Virus record (IMG/VR): IMGVR_UViG_3300029319_007985
Location: 64,001 to 128,000 of that record
Length of the DNA stretch: 64,000 nucleotides
Direction: 5' to 3' (one strand)
From: a virus
A program made the position numbers and the translations under genes. The stretch's first letter is position 1. Every line of letters begins with the position of its first letter. Under the pieces are notes generated by a model that did not search any database, was not told the origin of the DNA, and saw only the letters and a list, made by a program, of their open reading frames with translations. Below, one piece after another: positions 11,111 through 42,860 of this stretch.

Positions 11111-11659
11111 ATGCATTACAGAGAATTTATTGATAAAAGTTGTCCAAGAACAAAAGCAGAAAGTTGTTCTTGTGAAAGCATTAAGACATTGTCTGAACAG
11201 GCGTCTGATATAAAAGCATTTGTAGAACTTCAACACAGCGACAAAGTAAAAGGCACAATACTATTGATGCAGAAGCCTGGAACTCCAACTATGATCAAAG
11301 GAAGGATAGAAGGACTAACACCTGGCGAACATGGATTTCACATACATGAATTTGGCGACATGAGTGATGGATGTAAGTCAATGGGAGGACATTATAATCC
11401 AGACGGAGTTGACCATGGCGATCTAGAACAGGGACACGTTGGTGATCTTGGAAATGTATCCGCTGATGATTCCGGCATAGCAGACTTTACGATTGTGGCC
11501 AAGAGAGTTGACCTTGTTGGCGACAGATCGGTTGTTGGACGGGGTATGGTAATACACAAGGATGAAGACGATCTTGGTCGAGGTGGAGACGCAGAGTCCA
11601 AAAAAACTGGTAACGCTGGTGATCGACTGGCCTGCGGTGTGATTGTAATTAAAGAATAA
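11111..11659 (+). CDS. sodC: Cu/Zn superoxide dismutase with N-terminal extension, no signal peptide
   Basis: HGFHIHEFGD, GGHYNP, HVGDLGN, GNAGDRLACGVI. Confidence 0.93.
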   Translation: MHYREFIDKSCPRTKAESCSCESIKTLSEQASDIKAFVELQHSDKVKGTILLMQKPGTPTMIKGRIEGLTPGEHGFHIHEFGDMSDGCKSMGGHYNPDGVDHGDLEQGHVGDLGNVSADDSGIADFTIVAKRVDLVGDRSVVGRGMVIHKDEDDLGRGGDAESKKTGNAGDRLACGVIVIKE

Positions 11660-12518: not shown

Positions 12519-12806
12519 ATGAAACCCAAAACTTTTAAATCATCTGACCTAAGCGGATACGATAAAAAATTCAAGCACAGCATTTATTTGAACAGTGATG
12601 GAGTTGTGGAAGATTACATCGACTGGTGCAGGAAAAATTGTAAAGGCCGTTGGGGATGGTGGTACGAGACCACTAGAGATTGGGACCTGCATTGGGACTC
12701 CAGTGGTAACAAGGCCTTTATGAGTTTCTCGAGAAGAAAAGAGGCCCTAAGTTTTTGGTTCCACAATTGCAAATTAATATATGACACAGATTACGGAAAA
12801 GATTGA
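12519..12806 (+). CDS. Hypothetical Trp-rich phage protein
   Basis: WCRKNCKGRWGW. Confidence 0.6.
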   Translation: MKPKTFKSSDLSGYDKKFKHSIYLNSDGVVEDYIDWCRKNCKGRWGWWYETTRDWDLHWDSSGNKAFMSFSRRKEALSFWFHNCKLIYDTDYGKD

Positions 12807-13191
12807 GTATTGGGGATCTAATCTAAAGTTGTTAGAAGGCTTGGATAGATTCCAGTATATTATTGAACAGGCGAGGATGGCCAAACCAATGAACGAAAAA
12901 TTTAGAATACCTGAATTTCAGATACATGGTTGTGCAAGTAAACTTTGGGTGGTGCCAGAATTGAGGCAAGATCGATTGTTCCTTACTGTTGACAGTGACG
13001 CCTTCATAACTAAAGGGACCGCGGCAATAATTGCTGACATCTTTGATGGACAATCTCGAAGAGAAATAAGTCTTATAACAAAGGAAGACATCAGCAAATT
13101 AGGTATCATTGAAATATTGACTCCACAGAGGCAAAACGGCCTTTCAAACATGATAGGAACAATTCAGCGGTACGCAAAACAGGATAATTAA
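12781..13191 (+). CDS. sufE: SufE-family sulfur acceptor
   Basis: IHGCASKLW, DSDAFITKG, LTPQRQNGL. Confidence 0.88.
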   Translation: MTQITEKIEYWGSNLKLLEGLDRFQYIIEQARMAKPMNEKFRIPEFQIHGCASKLWVVPELRQDRLFLTVDSDAFITKGTAAIIADIFDGQSRREISLITKEDISKLGIIEILTPQRQNGLSNMIGTIQRYAKQDN

Positions 13192-13195
13192 TAAT

Positions 13196-13531
13196 ATGCA
13201 ATGGTTTAAAATCACAGAATCAGCAAAGAGTCAAATTGAAAATTTGCTGTCTAAAAACCCCGAAAAATATGCAGTTAGCCTTTCGGTACTTGGCGGCGGC
13301 TGTGCCGGTTTTAAGTATGACTGGGGATTTGTTGATAAAAAAGATGACATACATAAAGATGATCATTTAGAAGATTGGGGCACAGGAAAATTTGTGGTGG
13401 ACTCACAATCAATGTTGTACGTTGCAGGAACACAGATTGACTGGAAAGAAGAAGTTTTTGGGTCTCAGTTTGAAATATCTAATCCAAACGCCACTTCAGG
13501 TTGTGGGTGCGGAGAAAGTTTTGGAGTTTAG
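13196..13531 (+). CDS. A-type Fe-S carrier (IscA/SufA/ErpA family)
   Basis: GGCAGF, NPNATSGCGCGESF. Confidence 0.92.
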   Translation: MQWFKITESAKSQIENLLSKNPEKYAVSLSVLGGGCAGFKYDWGFVDKKDDIHKDDHLEDWGTGKFVVDSQSMLYVAGTQIDWKEEVFGSQFEISNPNATSGCGCGESFGV

Positions 13532-23298: not shown

Positions 23299-25851
23299 AT
23301 GGCCTCACCAGTGTGGCAAACCACAGCAGGCTTGTTAGGTGTAATCAACGAGCGTGATTTTTATTCGGTAACACTATCAGCGACTGATAGTGATGGGGAT
23401 TCTTTAACTTATTCCAAAATAGCAGGCACTCTACCAACAGGAATTGAACTTACTTCTGCAGGTGTACTGCAAGGCGTACCAACGGAGGTCTCTACAAGAT
23501 CCCTTTACACTTTTGTTATACGAGTCTCCGATGGTACAAATGTTGCTGACAGAACATTTAGCCTGCAGGTACAAGGTGCTGATGCTCCAGTTTTCGCTAC
23601 CGCGGCCGGAGAACTAAATTTAGCAGACTCCACTCAAGGCAGAGTCAATAGATGGGTGTTGGATGGAAGTTTAGTAAATTTCAGAGTGCAGGCCACAGAC
23701 ACCGACACTGCGGCAGGACAAACACTATTCTATTTTATTCAGGAAGGTGAACTACCACCCGGACTTAAACTTACCAGCGATGGACTTATAACCGGCACTG
23801 TGCTTTTGACAGATGATGAACGATATGGGCCTATTGGTGGATATGACAATTTCTACAAGTACGACGATGTGGGATATGACCCAACAAAATTTTCTACAAG
23901 TATCAGTAAAAACTTTGAGTTTACTATTGGAGTAAGTGACGGAAGCAATGTAACCACGCAAGTAAATTCTATCTTTGTTTTCAGTGCCGACTATTGGTTA
24001 GTCAGCAACAGTCAAATCACTATCGATTCTGACACACTGGCTGGTGATGCCTTGACCATGTCTTCTGCTCCTAACAGGCGTCCTGTTTTTGAAACAGATA
24101 GTAGTTTAGGATCCTTTAGACATGATAACAATGTTGTAATTAAAATTGACGTGGTTGACTTTGATCCATTACAAGGAGACTTGAACTATTCTATACAATC
24201 AGGAAGTTTACCCACAGGCTTATCTATTGACGTCAACACTGGCGAAATATCAGGACAACTGCCAACGCAAAGTGCAGTCTCAGTAGATCACACTTTTACA
24301 GTCAGGGCGAGTAGAATTGACGCGGTATCCGGCGTAACAATTTTTGGTGACAAAGAATTCACTATGACTGTGATCGGAGAGATCGACACAGGTATAAGTT
24401 TTGTGAGTCCAACGAACTTAGGCACAGTTACCGCTGGTATTCCTAGTTTGATTAATATAGAAGCAAGTGCGGTTGCAACCAACAGAGTTTTAGAATACAC
24501 GGTTACGACAGGATCACTTCCGACAGGTTTAACTCTTTCTCGTTCAGGAAATATCATTGGAAAAGTTGATAAAACAGAATTTACTACTGTTGATGATAAT
24601 GAAATTACTTTTGATACTAATAGTCTAAGTTTCGATAGAAAGTACACTTTTACGGTTACTGTTGGTGATCAGTATCAATCACTGGCAACTTCAAAAGAAT
24701 TTACTTTAACTGTTAGTCTACCATATGGGGTTGAGTATGGAAACATGTCTGCTCAAGGTCTCATACCAACTGGTGATAGAGATCTGTTCTACCAAATTGC
24801 ACAAGATCCTAACATTAACAGTAACGAAAATATATTCAGACCAGAAGACAATTTTTTTGGTATCCAAACAAATCCTGAGATGTTATTAATATCTGGACTA
24901 GAGCACAAGACCTTAACAGAATTACAGCAACAAATGGAGCAAAATCATACACCTAAGTCACTATATTTTGGTGAAATAAAAACAGCGGTTGCCAAAGAAA
25001 ATGGCAAGGTCAAATACGAAGTTGTGTATGTTGAAATGAAAGACAATTTAGTAAACAACTCAGGCGAAGCAGTTGCATCGTCTGTGACTTTGAGAACTGA
25101 TATCGTTAGACCATTAATAGGTGGATTGGCGGATGGAAACAGAATAACTGCGGATTATGATGTTTATGATGTTACCACCGATGGTGGCCTCAGTTTTTCT
25201 ATTGCTGGATCTAAAATAAGATATGCAAACCAATTGACAGCGGATACCGGAACTTTTGAAAAATTATTTCCAAACGCTGTGGCAAACATGAGAACCAGAA
25301 TGAAATCGTTAGGCCAAAGAGAATATGTACATCTACCTCTTTGGATGAGGACTAGTCAAGATAATTCTGGCGTTCCACTAGGTTATAAAATGGCAATGGT
25401 ACTTGCCTATTGTAAACCAAACAAGTCAGGTCTAGTAAAAAAACGTATACAAGATAAAACGATTGACTTCAAAAAATTAAATTTTGTAATTGACAGATAT
25501 AAAACTACCATAAACAAAGTTGATACAGGAACATTGACGGCCGATGGATCAACAACACAATTCACTTTGAATGAGATAGTAAATGAAGAAGAAATAAAAG
25601 TCAGAGAGAACGCCGTTGTGTATTCTCATGGCCAGCAGGTCAGGGCAGATAATAATCTATCGCCGAGTTATCTTTCAGCGGATTCGTTACTACGTTCTGC
25701 TGACTATGAACCACAATTTAGCCTGTCACATGACACAACAAACAAAAAGACAACCATTAATTTTACCAACGCTCCGACTGCCACTTCTAAAATAAGAGTG
25801 GAGCGACTTGGAGATAAATATCTAGCGTTTAAAAAGAAACTAAAAGAATAA
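23299..25851 (+). CDS. Baseplate/virion protein with Ig/cadherin-like repeats
   Basis: Repeated G.LP.GL.L...G.I.G motifs; AAGGAG SD; TAAATA at 23269. Confidence 0.75.
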   Translation: MASPVWQTTAGLLGVINERDFYSVTLSATDSDGDSLTYSKIAGTLPTGIELTSAGVLQGVPTEVSTRSLYTFVIRVSDGTNVADRTFSLQVQGADAPVFATAAGELNLADSTQGRVNRWVLDGSLVNFRVQATDTDTAAGQTLFYFIQEGELPPGLKLTSDGLITGTVLLTDDERYGPIGGYDNFYKYDDVGYDPTKFSTSISKNFEFTIGVSDGSNVTTQVNSIFVFSADYWLVSNSQITIDSDTLAGDALTMSSAPNRRPVFETDSSLGSFRHDNNVVIKIDVVDFDPLQGDLNYSIQSGSLPTGLSIDVNTGEISGQLPTQSAVSVDHTFTVRASRIDAVSGVTIFGDKEFTMTVIGEIDTGISFVSPTNLGTVTAGIPSLINIEASAVATNRVLEYTVTTGSLPTGLTLSRSGNIIGKVDKTEFTTVDDNEITFDTNSLSFDRKYTFTVTVGDQYQSLATSKEFTLTVSLPYGVEYGNMSAQGLIPTGDRDLFYQIAQDPNINSNENIFRPEDNFFGIQTNPEMLLISGLEHKTLTELQQQMEQNHTPKSLYFGEIKTAVAKENGKVKYEVVYVEMKDNLVNNSGEAVASSVTLRTDIVRPLIGGLADGNRITADYDVYDVTTDGGLSFSIAGSKIRYANQLTADTGTFEKLFPNAVANMRTRMKSLGQREYVHLPLWMRTSQDNSGVPLGYKMAMVLAYCKPNKSGLVKKRIQDKTIDFKKLNFVIDRYKTTINKVDTGTLTADGSTTQFTLNEIVNEEEIKVRENAVVYSHGQQVRADNNLSPSYLSADSLLRSADYEPQFSLSHDTTNKKTTINFTNAPTATSKIRVERLGDKYLAFKKKLKE

Positions 25852-25852
25852 A

Positions 25853-26416
25853 ATGGCAAGTAATATAGTACCAGGTAATATAGACGGAACTTTCCCAATA
25901 GCAGGACAGGATAACTCATCTCAAGGCTTTAGAGATAATTTCACAGCAACTAAAAATAATTTTACAACTGCTTCGACAGAAATAACTGACTTGCAGGCAA
26001 ATAAGGCATCAACAAACGCGGCGTCAGACTTTGCGGATAATATAGTTTCAAGGATGGCACTAAAAGACACTGCCGAGATGGTTTATGATCATGGCACAGT
26101 ATCAACTGGCACACTGACTCTAAATCACGAAAATGCAAATTTCCAAGTTGCCAATATAACAGGAAACATTACTTTGGCTTTTAGTAATTTTCCAATATCG
26201 GGAAGATTAGGCCGGGTGATTATACTAGCAACTGTTGGTGCAAGTGTATCGGCAATAACAGTGCCTAGTGCAGTAAGAAAAGCAACAAATGTCACTGGAT
26301 CGGATGGCTCTTCAACTACAGTCAATCCTGGTGTTGGCAGATATATGTGGGAGTTCATGACTACCGACGCTGGAACCACTGTGTACATGCATCAATTGGG
26401 TGATTATCACTCATAA
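25853..26416 (+). CDS. Virion structural protein
   Basis: FPIAGQDNSSQGFRDNF; position in structural block. Confidence 0.6.
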   Translation: MASNIVPGNIDGTFPIAGQDNSSQGFRDNFTATKNNFTTASTEITDLQANKASTNAASDFADNIVSRMALKDTAEMVYDHGTVSTGTLTLNHENANFQVANITGNITLAFSNFPISGRLGRVIILATVGASVSAITVPSAVRKATNVTGSDGSSTTVNPGVGRYMWEFMTTDAGTTVYMHQLGDYHS

Positions 26417-26432
26417 CAAATAGGAGGTACCT

Positions 26433-28256: not shown

Positions 28257-29024
28257 ATGAAATTATTAAATTGTGGATGTAGTTTTGCACATGGCTACAA
28301 TTCAATTCCACTTGATAATTATAACATTTTAAATCAACCTGGACTAATGAGTCCAGGCACCAAAAGAACTACCGCCACCGCTTACAAAAGTGCTGGTTGG
28401 CATCTAGCACAATCAAAAGATATGGAGTATATTGACATTGCACGTAATGGCAACAGCAATGAAGGGATATTAAGAACATTAAGAACTTACATCCATCTTA
28501 ATGACACAAAAGACTTATTCGTTTTGATCGGTTGGACACATGCATTTAGGAGAGAATACATGAGTGTGGTGACAGATAAAAACAAAAATGAATTTACTCA
28601 GTACAGAGAAATTCCAAGTTCTGGATCATTTTTAAATTCATTTGCCCAGGGAAAATCACCAATGATGGTTGAATTTAATGAAAGGAACTTCCGCCCTTTG
28701 GCATATGATGACCATATAGAATATAGACAATACAACATTATGTTGCAGGCACAACAGTTGTTACAACTAAAAAACATACCTTACCTCATGTACAATGCCT
28801 GTGGTAACGAGCATCAAAGCAATGACAGAGAAGTATTACAACTAAAAGATCAAATCGATAAGAAAAATTTTTTTAGATTTACAGGGCCAAGTTTTGATGA
28901 ATATGTTTTAGCCAACAGAATGTATCTTTCCAAAGATGGAGGACATCCTGGTCCAAAAGGACATCAACATCTTGCTGATTTATTAAGACCTAAGTTTGAT
29001 ACAATATTGACAAAAACCAACTAA
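28257..29024 (+). CDS. SGNH-hydrolase-like protein
   Basis: GCSFAHG, ARNGNSN, DGGHP. Confidence 0.55.
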   Translation: MKLLNCGCSFAHGYNSIPLDNYNILNQPGLMSPGTKRTTATAYKSAGWHLAQSKDMEYIDIARNGNSNEGILRTLRTYIHLNDTKDLFVLIGWTHAFRREYMSVVTDKNKNEFTQYREIPSSGSFLNSFAQGKSPMMVEFNERNFRPLAYDDHIEYRQYNIMLQAQQLLQLKNIPYLMYNACGNEHQSNDREVLQLKDQIDKKNFFRFTGPSFDEYVLANRMYLSKDGGHPGPKGHQHLADLLRPKFDTILTKTN

Positions 29025-29035
29025 AATACTATAAT
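29007..29035 (+). promoter_or_regulatory. Sigma70-type promoter for groES-petB
   Basis: TTGACA-N17-TATAAT; ATG follows after 7 nt. Confidence 0.82.
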
Positions 29036-29042
29036 TATAGAC

Positions 29043-29489
29043 ATGGGACAAATAGAAGATTTACAAAATAAAGGTTTTGGCAGTCACGGTGGAAGACAGT
29101 ACACCGTTGAATATGATATTACTCCATTAAAGAAACGTGTTTTGGTAACAAACATGAAATTTGGAGAGATCAAAACTGCCGGGGGAATAATTATACCTGA
29201 CGATGACGGTACCGAATCTGGCATACACCCGCGTTGGGCAGAAGTGTACGCAGTAGGTAGCAAACAGGAAGACGTCAAAGTAGGGCAATGGATATTGGTG
29301 GCTCACGGCAGATGGAGTAGATCTTTCAAAGTTAAAAAGAATGGAAAAGAATTTGAAGTGAGAATGATTGATGAAAATGACATTTTATTAGTTTCTGACG
29401 AAAGACCCGCTGACGAAACATCTAAAAAAGCAGGTTACGTAAACACTGGCGGTATGCAACAAATGACAAGTTTACCGGGAAATGATTAA
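29043..29489 (+). CDS. groES: Co-chaperonin GroES-like
   Basis: [30 protein letters not shown]. Confidence 0.82.
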
Positions 29490-30748
29490 TGGAAGAAGAA
29501 AAAAAATATAAACCAGTAAACACAAACAAAGTGGCGGAGAACACTTCGCCGTTCAAAGGTGTGTTAGGTTGGCTAGATAACAGACTGCCAGTATTCAGGA
29601 TGTTCAAGCACGAATACTTGGACTTCCAAGTACCAAAAACTTTGACATACTTTTGGAGTTTTGGAGCAATATTGACATTTTGTTTATTAGGTCTAATTAT
29701 AACAGGCCTAATATTAGGAATGCATTATAAACCATCTACGGCAGAAGCATTTGACAGTGTTGAAAAAATTATGCGTGATGTCAACTACGGTTGGCTGATA
29801 AGGTACATGCATATGAACCTGGCGTCCTTTTTCTTTATTGCAGTCTATATACACATGTTCCGCGGATTATATTTTGGTTCTTACAAATCACCTCGAGAAC
29901 TTATGTGGATCTTAGGATTAATAATTTATTTCTTAATGGTGGCAACTGCATTTTTAGGATACACTTTGCCATGGGGGCAAATGAGTTTTTGGGGAGCAAC
30001 TGTTATAACAAGTTTATTTGGAGCAATACCTTATATTGGTGAAACTATAACACATTGGTTATGGGGCGCCTACGCAGTTGACGATCCAACATTAAACAGG
30101 TTTTATGTATTGCACTGGCTTATAGCATTTCTAATTGTGGGTGTTGTGTTGTTTCATGTTATTGCACTACACATGACCGGATCAAACAATCCAACAGGAG
30201 TTGAACCAAAAGACACTAGAGATACTGTAAGTTTTCATCCTTATGTCACAACAAAGGATTTATTTGCATTTTTAGTTTTTATTGTAATATTCGCGGCATT
30301 TTTATTTTTCATGCCTAACTATCTTGGACACCCTGACAACTATATAAAAGCCAATCCGTTAGTGACACCTGCACATATTGTACCTGAGTGGTATTTTTTA
30401 CCTTGGTACGCAGTGCTAAGAGCGATACCTGACAAACTAGGCGGAGTAATTGCAATGGTGTCAGCGATCGGCGTAATAGGTTTACTGCCATGGCTAGACA
30501 CTAGTAAGATAAGAAGTTCTATATATAGACCAGTCTGGAAACAGTTTGTTTGGATTTTGGTTGCGGACTTCTTCCTTCTAATGTACTGCGGTGCTATGCC
30601 GGCGGAACAACCATTTGTTCTTTTGAGTCAAATAGGTACAGCATATTGGTTCTTATTTTTCTTAGTAATTGCACCGGTTGTGGGTTGGACCGAGAAACCT
30701 ACACCTCCCCCTGCGGCTATTCACTTATACAAAAAATCTAAAAAATGA
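29489..30748 (+). CDS. petB: Cytochrome b of the bc1 complex, full length
   Basis: Two His pairs 14 residues apart (YMHMN/YIHMF, LHWL/LFHV), [18 protein letters not shown]. Confidence 0.96.
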
Positions 30749-30984
30749 CCGAATTTACTTGTGGTAAATGTGGAACCAATTTTAAGGATTGCGTTTATTG
30801 GTTTGATAGTTTATACTATGCTAAATTCGACCATAGAAAAATTATTCCTTTCTGTGGTCCTAAATGCGTAGACGAATGGCACAAAGAAAACAACGTAAAA
30901 GAATGGGAACTAAGAAAAGCACCTTATCCAAAAGGTCCAGAATGGCAAATGATTACAAACCTATACCCTGCCATGTTCCAATAG
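30745..30984 (+). CDS. Zinc-finger protein
   Basis: CGKC and FCGPKC. Confidence 0.6.
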
Positions 30985-31334
30985 AAAAACTAGTCACTCT
31001 GGCAGAACTAGGACTTGGAGTAGAAAGGCCACTTAATTCAGAAAAAAGAAAGTGGATAGCCAAACTAGCAAAGGAAGGCAGTGACCAACCTATTCTTGTC
31101 ACTCCAATAAAAGACTCCGGATACTTTGTGTTGGCAGATGGTTGGCATAGGGTACAAGCCGCAAAAAAGAAAAACAAGAAAAAAATCTACGCACTACAAG
31201 TTCCTGTGAGGGTAGGACTTACAATGGCAAAAGTAAACAAAATATTACGGGACATCGATAAAGAATTTGATTACAAACTTGACACTAGTGGTGTTGTGGC
31301 TCACTGGGCAGTTATGCAATCAATGTTATACTAA
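30942..31334 (+). CDS. ParB/Srx N-terminal-like domain protein
   Basis: PILV...LADGWHRVQAA. Confidence 0.7.
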   Translation: MANDYKPIPCHVPIEKLVTLAELGLGVERPLNSEKRKWIAKLAKEGSDQPILVTPIKDSGYFVLADGWHRVQAAKKKNKKKIYALQVPVRVGLTMAKVNKILRDIDKEFDYKLDTSGVVAHWAVMQSMLY

Positions 31335-31463: not shown

Positions 31464-31547
31464 ATGAATCAAATATTACCTTTTGCATTAGCAGTGATAA
31501 TCACGGTGGCTGTTATTTTGGCCATTGTGTATTATGTGCCAATGTAG
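31464..31547 (+). CDS. Single-TM micro-protein, 27 aa
   Basis: MNQILPFALAVIITVAVILAIVYYVPM fills the gap. Confidence 0.5.
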   Translation: MNQILPFALAVIITVAVILAIVYYVPM

Positions 31548-38576: not shown

Positions 38577-39428
38577 ATGAAAGACTATTATAAAATTCTT
38601 GGGGTATCCGAGGATGCATCTGCGGATGAAATAAAAAAAGCATTTAGGAAACTGGCCGTAAAGCATCACCCTGACCGAGGTGGAAATGAATTAAAATTTA
38701 AAGAGGCCAACGAAGCATACGATACCCTTAAAAACAAAAGTAAAAGACAAGAATACGATACACTGAGAAAGTATGGTAGTAACTTTGGCGGACAAGGTTC
38801 TGGTTTCCGATTCACATCAGGAAACTTTGATGAATTTTTTGGAGGTGATTTCTTTGAAGAATTTATGAGTGGCATGGGTGGAATGGGACGTAGACCTAAT
38901 TACAGGGCAAGGCCAAGAAACAATAAAGATGTTTCAATAAGGATTAATCTTAGTATTAAAGAAGTGATGCAAAGTGTTAAAAGAACAATAAGTGTAAAAC
39001 TGCCTAGTGGTCGAGATGAGATAGTAGATGTGAAGATAGGAGCAGGAGTGCAAAGTGGAGTTGTGTTCAAATATGCTGGACTGGGTGATGACACTGATAA
39101 AAATTTGCCAAGAGGAAATTTATTGATCCGAGTAACAGTGTTAGATTCTGATGGCTTTACACGAAAAGGAAATGATTTATGGACGGACAAAAGGATAGAT
39201 GCTTTTCAGGCCATGAGAGGTTGTGAATTTACTATACGTGATTTACAGGACAATGTTGTAAAGGTACATGTGCCTGCTGGTACTCAACCAGGAAGTGTTT
39301 TACAATTAAAAAGCAAAGGAATGCCGGTCCATGAGACTTTGTCGATACGTGGTAACATGTATATCAAAATACATGTCACTATACCTAAACTTAATGAATC
39401 AGAATTAAATAAAATAAAAGACTTATGA
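38577..39428 (+). CDS. dnaJ: Class B DnaJ (CbpA-like, no zinc finger)
   Basis: [13 protein letters not shown] region, C-terminal domain. Confidence 0.9.
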
Positions 39429-40039
39429 AAACTCCAGTAAACTTTTCAGATAAAGTGGCATATAGAATTACAATGTTCTTAAGGTGGACAGCAGACACCT
39501 TTTTCAAGAAGAGGTATGGACACAGAGCAGTTGTATTAGAGACCATTGCTGGTGTGCCTGGTATGGTCGCAGGTATGTGGAATCATTTAAGAAGTTTACG
39601 TAAAATGAAGCCAGATGACCGAGGGTGGATCAAAACTTTATTAGCAGAAGCAGAAAATGAACGTATGCATCTAATGATTTTTATTAGAATTGCAAAACCT
39701 AATTGGTTTGAACGTTGGATGATTATCACAGCGCAATTTATTTTCTGGCACTTCTATATGTTCTTATACATATTTTTTCCGCAATGCGCCCATAGGATGG
39801 TAGGTTATTTTGAAGAACAAGCCTGTATAAGTTACACAGAATATCTTAAAGAAATAGATGAAGGTAGGACAGAAAATATAAAGGCACCCAAAATTGCTAT
39901 TGATTATTACAACCTAAGTCAAGATGCAACATTACGTGATGTTGTCATAGCAGTACGAAAGGATGAAGAAGGACACAGAGATGTAAATCACGACATGGCA
40001 GATCAAATAAGAAGGAATAGGCACGGACTTATACATTAA
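39425..40039 (+). CDS. aox: Alternative oxidase (ubiquinol oxidase)
   Basis: [35 protein letters not shown] di-iron ligands. Confidence 0.93.
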
Positions 40040-40053
40040 TGTTTAAATAGATT

Positions 40054-40557
40054 ATGATGCAAATTTTTATAAATCCATATCACACTCTTAACACTGTCAG
40101 CACTGATGTGGATCTTGAACAAGGTATTCAAGGTTATAGCGACATAGAAAGATTTGAAAAAGATATGATCAATCTTATGGTTGCATCCAAAGGTATTGGA
40201 TTGGCCGCAAACCAACTAGGCATTACCAAGCGATTTTTCTGTATTGGCTATGAATCATTTGACGTTTTTAAAAAACCTGTTATACTATGGAATCCATTGA
40301 TAGTTAGAAGTTCTGAAGAAACTGTCGAGGATGTTGAAGGTTGTTTAAGTTTTCCAGGCGTATGGTTAAAAGTTAGACGACCAAAAAAAGTCACTGTAAG
40401 ATGGCAGAATGTTAAAGGAGAAATTTGTATGCAACATTTAGATAATTTGGAAAGTAAATGTTTTCAGCATGAACTAGACCATATAGATGGCATAACATTT
40501 GACAAACGGGTCTCAAAATTAAAATGGGACATGGCTAAGAAGAAAGCAAAAAAATGA
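40054..40557 (+). CDS. def: Peptide deformylase
   Basis: GIGLAANQ, EGCLS, QHELDH. Confidence 0.93.
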   Translation: MMQIFINPYHTLNTVSTDVDLEQGIQGYSDIERFEKDMINLMVASKGIGLAANQLGITKRFFCIGYESFDVFKKPVILWNPLIVRSSEETVEDVEGCLSFPGVWLKVRRPKKVTVRWQNVKGEICMQHLDNLESKCFQHELDHIDGITFDKRVSKLKWDMAKKKAKK

Positions 40558-42860
40558 TTGAATCAACAGACGACCTAGAACACATATTCGAACAAGCAGT
40601 AAAAGAGGCCGAGTCAAGAAGGCACGAATACGTTACTATAGAACATTTGTTACTTGCTTTAGTAAAAGATAAAAACATAGGTACAATTTTAGTAGACTTT
40701 AAAGTAAATGTTGGAGCATTGATAAAGGATCTAGAAAACTATCTTGATGACGAAGTTAAAGACATCATTGTAAAAGATAAATCAAAACCCGTTAATCCAA
40801 GAAAAACTGCTTCATTAGAAAGACTTATGAATAGAGCCTTTACTCAAGCACTATTTCAAGGAAGACAAGATCTTAAGCCAATTGATATACTGTTGAGTAT
40901 TTTTGCAGAAAAAAGAAGTTACAGTGCATTTTTATTGAAAAAGTTTAATGTTAACAAAGATGATATTACAGATATGGTCTCAGCAGAAAACATTATTGAT
41001 GAATCTGCTTTTGGTGGCTCTGGTCCTGAACAAAAATTAAGACCAGATCAAGCCGATAAGATATTAAGAAATTATACGGAGAATTTGAATCAAAAGTATT
41101 TTGATAAAAAAATTGATCCTGTTATCGGTAGAGAAGAAGAACTTCTTACTATTAAACAAACTCTTGCAAGAAGAAATAAAAATAATGTTTTATTAGTTGG
41201 TGACCCAGGAGTGGGTAAGACTGCCGTGGTCGAAGGATTGGCAAGACGCATAGCAAAAAACAAAGAGGATGTGCCGGAATACTTGAAGGATCATATAGTT
41301 TATAGTCTTGATGTATCTGGAATGATTGCTGGATCAAAGTTTAGAGGAGATTTTGAAGAAAGGTTAAAACTAATTTTGAATGCGCTTGAGAAGAAAGGCA
41401 AAACTATACTTTTCGTTGACGAGGCCCATATGATGGTTGGTGCAGGTTCAACAGGACAAGGAGGAGTGGATCTAGCACAGATGATCAAGCCGGTATTGAC
41501 CAAAGGGTCAATAAAAGTAATCGCTTCAACAACATGGGAAGAATTTAGGAAATTTTTTGACAAAGATCGTGCTCTGATGAGAAGATTTCAAAGGGTACAA
41601 ATAGGAGAGCCGACAAACGAAACTTGTAACAAGATCATCAAAGGTGTAAAACAATATTATGAAAAGTTCCATGGTTGCACTATCACGGACGAAGCATGTG
41701 AAGACGCTGTAGAATATTCAAGTAAATTTATCGCTGATAAAAAATTACCAGACAAGGCAATAGACCTAATGGACTCTGCATGTGCCAGACTAAGATTAAA
41801 AGGCATCAAAAATGGAAAAATTGATCATGACGAAATCATACATGAGGTAAGCAAAGTCACAGGTATTTCAATTGAACAACTATCACAAAAACAAGCAACT
41901 AATTTAAAAACATTAGAAGAAAAAATGAAACTGCAGGTATTTGGACAGGACGAGGCAATCAACACTATCACTGATAAAATTTTAGTTGCTAGGGCAGGCC
42001 TTAAAAGTTTAAACAAACCTGTTGGTAGTTTCTTGTTTTTAGGTCCTACAGGGTGCGGAAAAACTGAGACTGCAAGGCAACTTGCTAAAACACTAGGAGT
42101 TGAATTGCTAAGGTTCGACATGTCTGAGTATCAAGAAAAGCATTCAATTGCCAAATTAATTGGATCACCGCCAGGATACGTTGGCTACGAGGATAGTAAC
42201 ATGGGTGGTGGTATGTTTATCAATGAAGTAGAAAAGAATCCACACGCAGTTGTGCTGTTTGACGAAGTTGAAAAAGCACACAGAGATGTTTCGAACATGC
42301 TTTTACAAGTAATGGACTACGGTACAGTTACTGGCTCTAATGGTAAAAAGGCAGACTGCAGAAATATAACCTTGATCCTGACCTCAAACTTGGGTGCCGA
42401 GGAAATGGAAAAAGCAACATTAGGATTTGGTGACACACAGAGAACTGAAGATGATGATGCAATGAAAAGATTCTTCCCTCCAGAATTTAGAAATAGACTG
42501 GATGCTGTGATCAAGTTCAGTAAATTAGGCAAGGATACAATGAAGAAGATTGTTGGTAAGTTTTTACAAGAACTTAACACAATGACTATTGAAAAAGGTG
42601 TAGAAGTAAATGCCTCGGATGATGCAGTGGACTATCTGATTGACAAAGGTTTTGATGCAAAACTAGGAGCAAGGCCATTAAGCAGAATTATCGATGACGA
42701 GATTAAGAATCCGTTATCAAAAATGATACTGTTTGGTGAACTACAAGAAGGTGGCAGAGTAGAAGTAGCAATCAAAGATGATAAAATAAAAATTGACTAT
42801 AAAAAACCTGTGTCAAAAGACAAACCTAAGACAGTAAAGGCCAATGCGAAAACATCATAA
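40554..42860 (+). CDS. clpA: ClpA AAA+ unfoldase
   Basis: N-domain, two Walker A motifs (GDPGVGKT, GPTGCGKT), no ClpB M-domain, LGF loop. Confidence 0.9.
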   Translation: MIESTDDLEHIFEQAVKEAESRRHEYVTIEHLLLALVKDKNIGTILVDFKVNVGALIKDLENYLDDEVKDIIVKDKSKPVNPRKTASLERLMNRAFTQALFQGRQDLKPIDILLSIFAEKRSYSAFLLKKFNVNKDDITDMVSAENIIDESAFGGSGPEQKLRPDQADKILRNYTENLNQKYFDKKIDPVIGREEELLTIKQTLARRNKNNVLLVGDPGVGKTAVVEGLARRIAKNKEDVPEYLKDHIVYSLDVSGMIAGSKFRGDFEERLKLILNALEKKGKTILFVDEAHMMVGAGSTGQGGVDLAQMIKPVLTKGSIKVIASTTWEEFRKFFDKDRALMRRFQRVQIGEPTNETCNKIIKGVKQYYEKFHGCTITDEACEDAVEYSSKFIADKKLPDKAIDLMDSACARLRLKGIKNGKIDHDEIIHEVSKVTGISIEQLSQKQATNLKTLEEKMKLQVFGQDEAINTITDKILVARAGLKSLNKPVGSFLFLGPTGCGKTETARQLAKTLGVELLRFDMSEYQEKHSIAKLIGSPPGYVGYEDSNMGGGMFINEVEKNPHAVVLFDEVEKAHRDVSNMLLQVMDYGTVTGSNGKKADCRNITLILTSNLGAEEMEKATLGFGDTQRTEDDDAMKRFFPPEFRNRLDAVIKFSKLGKDTMKKIVGKFLQELNTMTIEKGVEVNASDDAVDYLIDKGFDAKLGARPLSRIIDDEIKNPLSKMILFGELQEGGRVEVAIKDDKIKIDYKKPVSKDKPKTVKANAKTS

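Follow-up and report, generated by a model that had tools for sequence, protein, structure and literature searches.

We analyzed a 64,000-nucleotide stretch of viral DNA (positions 64,001 to 128,000 of IMG/VR record IMGVR_UViG_3300029319_007985), hereafter the window, which carries a lone petB gene for a full-length cytochrome b. This gene is most likely an auxiliary metabolic gene that would provide a replacement core subunit in a SAR11 host. New here are the lineage to which the phage gene belongs, which we call type A, and the presence of this lineage in SAR11 chromosomes. It was already known that petB can be named as an auxiliary gene, since 'CYTB and petB' appear in one line of an automated auxiliary-gene list from Mediterranean viral contigs, in a paper whose main text holds no phylogeny, context or host analysis of petB (PMC10653327). 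Our literature search, which mostly did not reach subscription papers, returned no dedicated study of phage petB. Viral cytochrome b is absent from PHROGs and BFVD, and the search of cultured phages gave a single match, partial and doubtful (39%), at one end of a record from a Helicobacter phage.

A complete cytochrome b chain among phage genes

The source record is a 172-kb fragment of a marine jumbo phage that is 47% complete, which puts the whole genome at approximately 365 kb. Among DNA polymerases, those of Phosso and Atu_ph07, two jumbo phages of Alphaproteobacteria, most resemble the one in this record (44-49%). The following features, in window coordinates, are relevant to petB:

29007..29035, + strand: sigma70-type promoter, 12/12 consensus, 7 nt before the groES start (consensus match only)
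29043..29489, + strand: groES-like co-chaperonin (PHROG 'head morphogenesis'), with the same order in loci L311-L318
29489..30748, + strand: petB, full-length type-A cytochrome b, 419 aa (ORF call, Pfam and PDB matches)
29810..29854, + strand: helix B heme ligands His108 (bL) and His122 (bH), with Leu111 replacing the usual Gly100 (alignment)
29990..30010, + strand: WGATVIT, residues 168-174, cd1 helix of the Qo site and Rieske docking surface
30113..30172, + strand: helix D heme ligands His209 (bL) and His223 (bH), plus Qi-site His228
within 30113..30172, + strand: type-A Trp210 and Ala213 (Tyr199 and Pro202 in Paracoccus numbering)
30383..30394, + strand: PEWY Qo motif, residues 299-302
30745..31334, + strand: 79-aa ORF with no family, then a ParB-like ORF, downstream of petB
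31502..31529, + strand: terminator-like hairpin, possible end of the unit (pattern match only)
39425..40039, + strand: alternative oxidase (AOX), a second quinol-oxidising enzyme, coupled to dnaJ (PF01786, E 7.5e-82)

As expected of the bc1 type, the b6-like and subunit-IV-like halves lie in a single petB chain, matching PF00033 (E 3e-69, residues 45-231) and PF00032 (E 3e-40, residues 287-388), respectively. The four heme histidines (residues 108, 122, 209 and 223) are spaced by 14 and 14. In b6, the spacing is 15 in helix D, and there is a cysteine for heme cn. The Qo site retains PEWY, the cd1 helix, Y147 and Y302, and the Qi residues H228, K256 and D257 correspond to H217, K251 and D252 of bc1. 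The best PDB matches are the cytochromes b of Paracoccus and Rhodobacter (1e-139), while b6 matches the N-terminal half only (1e-39). In particular, cytochrome b of Paracoccus denitrificans (PetB/FbcB; PDB 2yiu/9fks) aligns end to end with the phage chain and shares with it the two Pfam halves, the four histidines and their 14/14 spacing, PEWY and the Qi His/Lys/Asp (E 1e-139). Unlike it, the phage petB is viral, lies outside petABC, does not have the Rhodobacteraceae loop insertion and bears Q58L, G100L, Y199W and P202A, as well as F301W in its subclade. The predicted model (pLDDT 70.6) has eight long helices in the expected order, and a crude hydropathy scan counted seven. Alignment, Pfam and PDB matches thus bear out the original prediction of a full-length bc1-type chain with all four heme histidines, PEWY and WGATVIT intact.

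The petB gene is under strong purifying selection. Across 24 viral rows of clade A, the viral clade that includes the window, the heme ligands do not vary, and neither do the Qo residues F144, G146, Y147, M154, G158, I162, T288, E295, Y297 and Y302 or the Qi residues H217, K251 and D252. The dN/dS of viral petB pairs (0.016-0.08) is comparable to that of host pairs (0.017-0.039), and the window petB differs from a 97%-identical relative by 64 synonymous and 4 non-synonymous codons.

The neighbours of petB are groES, a DnaE fragment, a ParB-like ORF, a clamp loader and virion proteins, with no petA upstream or petC downstream. The stop codon of groES overlaps the start codon of petB (TAATG, 29487-29491), which implies translational coupling, and the position of the promoter suggests that the groES-petB transcript is probably leaderless. 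Two observations on related phages that are otherwise 97% identical suggest allele exchange at this locus: a 255-aa ORF upstream of groES (window 28257-29024) is missing from them, and the groES-petB-parB block is just ~89% identical. The AOX gene sits 9 kb from petB, with a promoter-chaperone layout that parallels that of petB; among cultured phage records, an AOX homologue is found in 'Phage C48C1' only (55%). Genes for Cu/Zn superoxide dismutase, SufE, IscA, peptide deformylase and ClpA are also present in the window (11111-11659, 12781-13531, 40054-42860). Judging from these annotations, the AOX, superoxide dismutase and Fe-S assembly genes would fit a wider respiratory-maintenance kit. 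In related phages, the heme-synthesis gene hemE (L148:9212-10243) and Fe-S assembly genes (L144:3749-6738) lie near petB.

The composition of petB is that of its surroundings. Three motifs are avoided throughout the phage genome, namely AGCT (0 observed, 261 expected), GCWGC (0 versus 159) and AGCCC/GGGCT (0 versus 58). As predicted, petB shares this avoidance (0 versus 2.8 expected; synonymous resampling, P = 0.026). Its GC3 of 0.34 is close to that of the phage genes (0.33 +/- 0.05), compared with 0.22-0.24 for SAR11 petB. Both properties indicate that petB is a long-term phage resident. Across this record and the loci L001-L019 and L141-L150, avoidance of GCWGC was common to most clade A phages and that of AGCT was found in some, while several clade B phages avoid GATC instead. 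A search for a host methylase matching the avoided motifs returned none.

Viral petB genes and the host of the phage

We identified 59 viral petB loci in IMG/VR, none of which is flanked by petA or petC, the genes that flank nearly all bacterial petB loci. The lack of Rieske or c1 neighbours named in the original prediction extends to all 59 viral loci. The Rieske, c1 and cytochrome c families have no match in the 172-kb record, and the petA and petC families are absent from all 36 other viral records searched. All of these records are partial (at most 47% complete), so that partner genes could lie in the missing parts. Viral petB occurs in approximately ten different gene neighbourhoods, after groES, nrdB, folE and others, and many phage relatives may be without it.

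The proposed phylogeny separates the viral copies into clades A and B, and places clade A with the petB of Fonsibacter and HIMB59, apart from canonical SAR11. Clade B, which has a T4-like context, nests within SAR116 petB (support 100/98), and these trees argue that it is a second, independent viral capture, from SAR116. Residue conservation, purifying selection, the diversity of contexts and the capture from SAR116 all agree with a lone, intact and long-resident phage petB. In the majority of phages of either clade, an otherwise invariant threonine (residue 201 of the window petB) has been replaced, independently in A and B, by phenylalanine or leucine (petB residues 199-205, loci L002-L019 and L020-L058); the window petB retains it. 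Two loci (L154:4001-5317 and L273) hold a lone Fonsibacter-type petB at 49% GC beside csgF/csgG, isocitrate lyase and hemC, which could be a re-capture from the host. At the contig edge of L050, the petB of a viral contig resembles Rhodobacteraceae sequences, and represents a possible third capture or cellular carry-over.

Several phage genes point to the host. The record contains a permuted tmRNA with a 25-residue tag ending in LAA, next to the bL12 gene (L319, G000 25000-26425, outside the window); bS21, ClpX, Hsp20 and ClpS lie further along. Permuted tmRNA is an established alphaproteobacterial trait and therefore indicates an alphaproteobacterial host. The phage Hsp20 is most similar to that of the sister group of Fonsibacter (70-74% identity), followed by Fonsibacter (64-66%), the rest of SAR11 (54-63%) and the other Alphaproteobacteria sampled (at most 52%). 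The AOX is 63-74% identical to SAR11 AOX, and the top match of SufB is in the Fonsibacter sister group, by a thin margin. Overall, ClpA, ClpX, bS21, bL12, SufB and the tmRNA did not discriminate the host subclade. These similarities suggest that the host is likely an alphaproteobacterium, most likely of SAR11.

The type-A lineage in bacterial chromosomes

The type-A signature comprises approximately 20 positions. These include Q58L, Y199W and P202A, together with a bulky side chain at G100 (G100L/M/F, Paracoccus numbering; leucine in the window petB), which in the sequence lie near the ligands of heme bL. Y199 and F195 lie at the bL-bL interface. Residues that appeared virus-specific against 77 bacterial rows, and could have been ascribed to 'retuning' by the virus, were then detected in the chromosomes of Fonsibacter and HIMB59. 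Since phage, Fonsibacter and HIMB59 copies share them, these residues belong to the lineage as a whole and were not invented by viruses, and the retuning of host complex III that had been proposed for the phage gene is not borne out by them. The type-A residues appear compatible with being the only cytochrome b of the cell, and would retune only a host that has a canonical chain.

Clade A is ~59-64% identical to canonical SAR11 petB. The nearest cellular relatives of the window petB are the petB genes of Ca. Fonsibacter, which share 71-72% identity (70-73% with part of its sister group included) and lie in ordinary petABC; no cellular copy above 73% was found in either the SAR11 or the class-wide search. 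Among the 381 Pelagibacterales genomes in which petB matched, 12 carry a type-A copy (70-73%) and no other match, located between petA and petC; in a thirteenth, the type-A copy is frameshifted. This arrangement supports, indirectly, the predicted replacement of the host complex III core. In the RpoB tree, the carriers are all eight sampled genomes of the Fonsibacter clade and four of the eight in its sister group (clade IIIa in our reading), whose remaining four have canonical petB. The class-wide search identified one further carrier group of ~60 genomes, whose petB is 65-66% identical and which we take to be the HIMB59 group (AFS48982.1). In other families of the HIMB59 order (L263-L272), the Qo motif of chromosomal petB is degenerate, reading PNWY or ANWY instead of PEWY, with E295N in 10 of 10 rows.

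The petB genes of Fonsibacter (SAR11 IIIb/LD12) and of part of its sister group belong to the same clade as the phage gene and share its N-terminal extension and signature residues. They differ from it in lying in petABC, in their GC3 of ~0.24 and in being less diverse, with a mean identity of 86% among themselves as compared to 74% among the phage copies. The HIMB59-group petB also bears the type-A signature and is sister to the clade of phage and Fonsibacter copies; unlike the phage gene, it is found in petABC and does not have nine residues specific to phage and Fonsibacter.

Normally, petB is the most conserved of the three subunits in SAR11. The petA and petC of the carriers nest in SAR11 (100/99) and are 65-67% identical to those of other SAR11, and their petB is just 58-59% identical to that of other SAR11, among which petB identity is 83%. 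With rows from the HIMB59 order included, the tree unites carrier petB with clade A and the HIMB59 group (100/100), and the remainder of the HIMB59 order branches as sister to this clade (96/93). The grouping of carrier petB with other SAR11, as under vertical descent, was rejected (AU test, p = 4e-9), and so was an origin of type A inside Pelagibacterales, with canonical SAR11 as the donor (p = 5e-9). The test of a SAR11 origin gave no rejection without phage or HIMB59 rows (p = 0.71), and therefore the result depends on taxon sampling. Taken from these sequence comparisons, a replacement of petB in Fonsibacter and part of its sister group is well supported.

The carriers nest among the phage rows with support of 97/92, 95/86 and 84/85 in three trees, and do so in every best tree. 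Viral monophyly was recovered in none of 200 bootstrap trees in every set, each protein half included, but the AU test leaves it unrejected (p = 0.24, 0.096 and 0.27), so that a phage-to-host direction is favoured but unproven. In these trees, several protein-database rows are labelled viral by clade, without context evidence, and row P0098, which proved mosaic, was removed from the tree giving 95/86 and p = 0.27. None of our conclusions relies on the unpublished genome G443. We lean slightly towards a history in which jumbo phages acquired cytochrome b from a HIMB59-like lineage and diversified it. A viral copy would later have taken the place of the original petB, with the native petA and petC kept on either side, in the lineage that includes Fonsibacter and some of its sister group. 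The alternative route is a transfer of petB from bacterium to bacterium, with viral capture afterwards.

Role of the phage chain

Given the conserved residues, we consider it probable that the host cell expresses the phage chain, which acquires heme, combines with the Rieske protein and cytochrome c1 of the host, and keeps the Q cycle running. During infection, the phage would make its own cytochrome b from the groES-coupled transcript. This chain would bind two hemes b and, with the host Rieske protein and cytochrome c1, would form a hybrid complex III capable of a full Q cycle, which may sustain the proton-motive force and the turnover of the quinone pool after host expression declines. The Qo reaction needs the Rieske head (PMC7908018), and the Rieske-docking surface kept in the phage chain would be senseless without one, so that a Rieske partner is expected. 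Cross-species bc1 dimers work in vivo and support growth (PMC4152375). The natural placement of the type-A chain in operons with SAR11 Rieske and c1 also favours such a hybrid, while the identity of just 72% between the phage chain and its nearest chromosomal copy, and of about 60% to canonical SAR11 petB, counts against it.

A sub-case of the replacement subunit, compatible with it, is that a host with a canonical chain receives a type-A isoform, whose changes at heme bL and at the dimer interface would alter redox potential, superoxide leak or inhibitor sensitivity. Which petB isoform the host already has, and hence whether that of the phage differs from it, depends on the host subclade. The genomes with the best Hsp20 matches (G004, G024 and G242) carry canonical petB (~61%), which, together with the signature changes around heme bL, makes retuning a possibility that we hold tentatively. 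However, the signature is also chromosomal, the sister-group genomes G163 and G383 carry type A with Hsp20 matches nearly as good, and the SAR116 phage clade merely tracks the chain of its host.

The nearby AOX, with its parallel layout, could suggest that the phage chain is instead dominant-negative, soaking up Rieske and c1 or short-circuiting the Q cycle to divert electrons to the phage oxidase. We regard this as unlikely, because the Qi, Qo and both heme sites are all constrained, and an inhibitor would not need every one of them, and because the type-A chain serves as sole chromosomal petB. It is quite unlikely that the chain acts alone, as a heme store or a quinone-linked oxidoreductase: partners were found in none of the (partial) viral records, but the Rieske-docking residues are invariant, and unassembled bacterial cytochrome b is generally unstable.

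Finally, it is very improbable that petB is a chimera of assembly or a piece of host DNA that was captured recently and is carried passively, given the GC3, the motif avoidance and the distance from any cellular copy found, and because a 99%-identical protein recurs in the same groES-petB-parB-clamp loader context in at least eight other assemblies (among 25 index blocks), where, as in L001 and L031, phage genes flank petB on both sides. For the window petB, this repeated groES-petB synteny rules out the chimera that the original prediction had named as its possible refutation. Such artefacts or recombinants do occur in petB: two single contigs, L151:61-1365 (coverage 2.3) and L310:551-1822, switch between phage and SAR11 sequence inside the gene near WGATVIT. 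Whether chimeric in assembly or truly recombinant, these contigs have no bearing on the window copy.

The closest precedent for a replacement core subunit is cyanophage psbA/psbD, which likewise encodes a quinone-binding core subunit of a multi-subunit membrane complex, the partners of which are not carried. Purifying selection, repeated captures and exchange with hosts are known for psbA/psbD. Viral petB resembles them in being flanked by viral genes in independent assemblies, in its purifying selection and in its host origin with virus-specific clades. Unlike them, it is respiratory and is found in phages of heterotrophs. Expression, incorporation and fast turnover have been shown for D1, and for viral petB expression and incorporation are predicted; to our knowledge, fast damage-driven turnover is not established for cytochrome b. 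The predicted analogy with psbA therefore holds for viral location, selection and origin, and is missing the leg of damage-driven turnover.

These results would carry the psbA pattern, in which the virus provides a single core component of an energy complex of its host, over to respiration in the most abundant heterotrophs of the ocean, with at least two independent captures, one linked to SAR11 and HIMB59 and one from SAR116. They also expose a hidden swap, within SAR11, of the bc1 subunit that is normally the most conserved. If the swap went from phage to host, it would serve as evidence from nature that SAR11 partners assemble with the phage chain. The dominant SAR11 of fresh water, Fonsibacter, and some members of its sister group would then respire via a virus-derived complex III core, and a virus would have rewritten the respiratory core of a globally dominant lineage.
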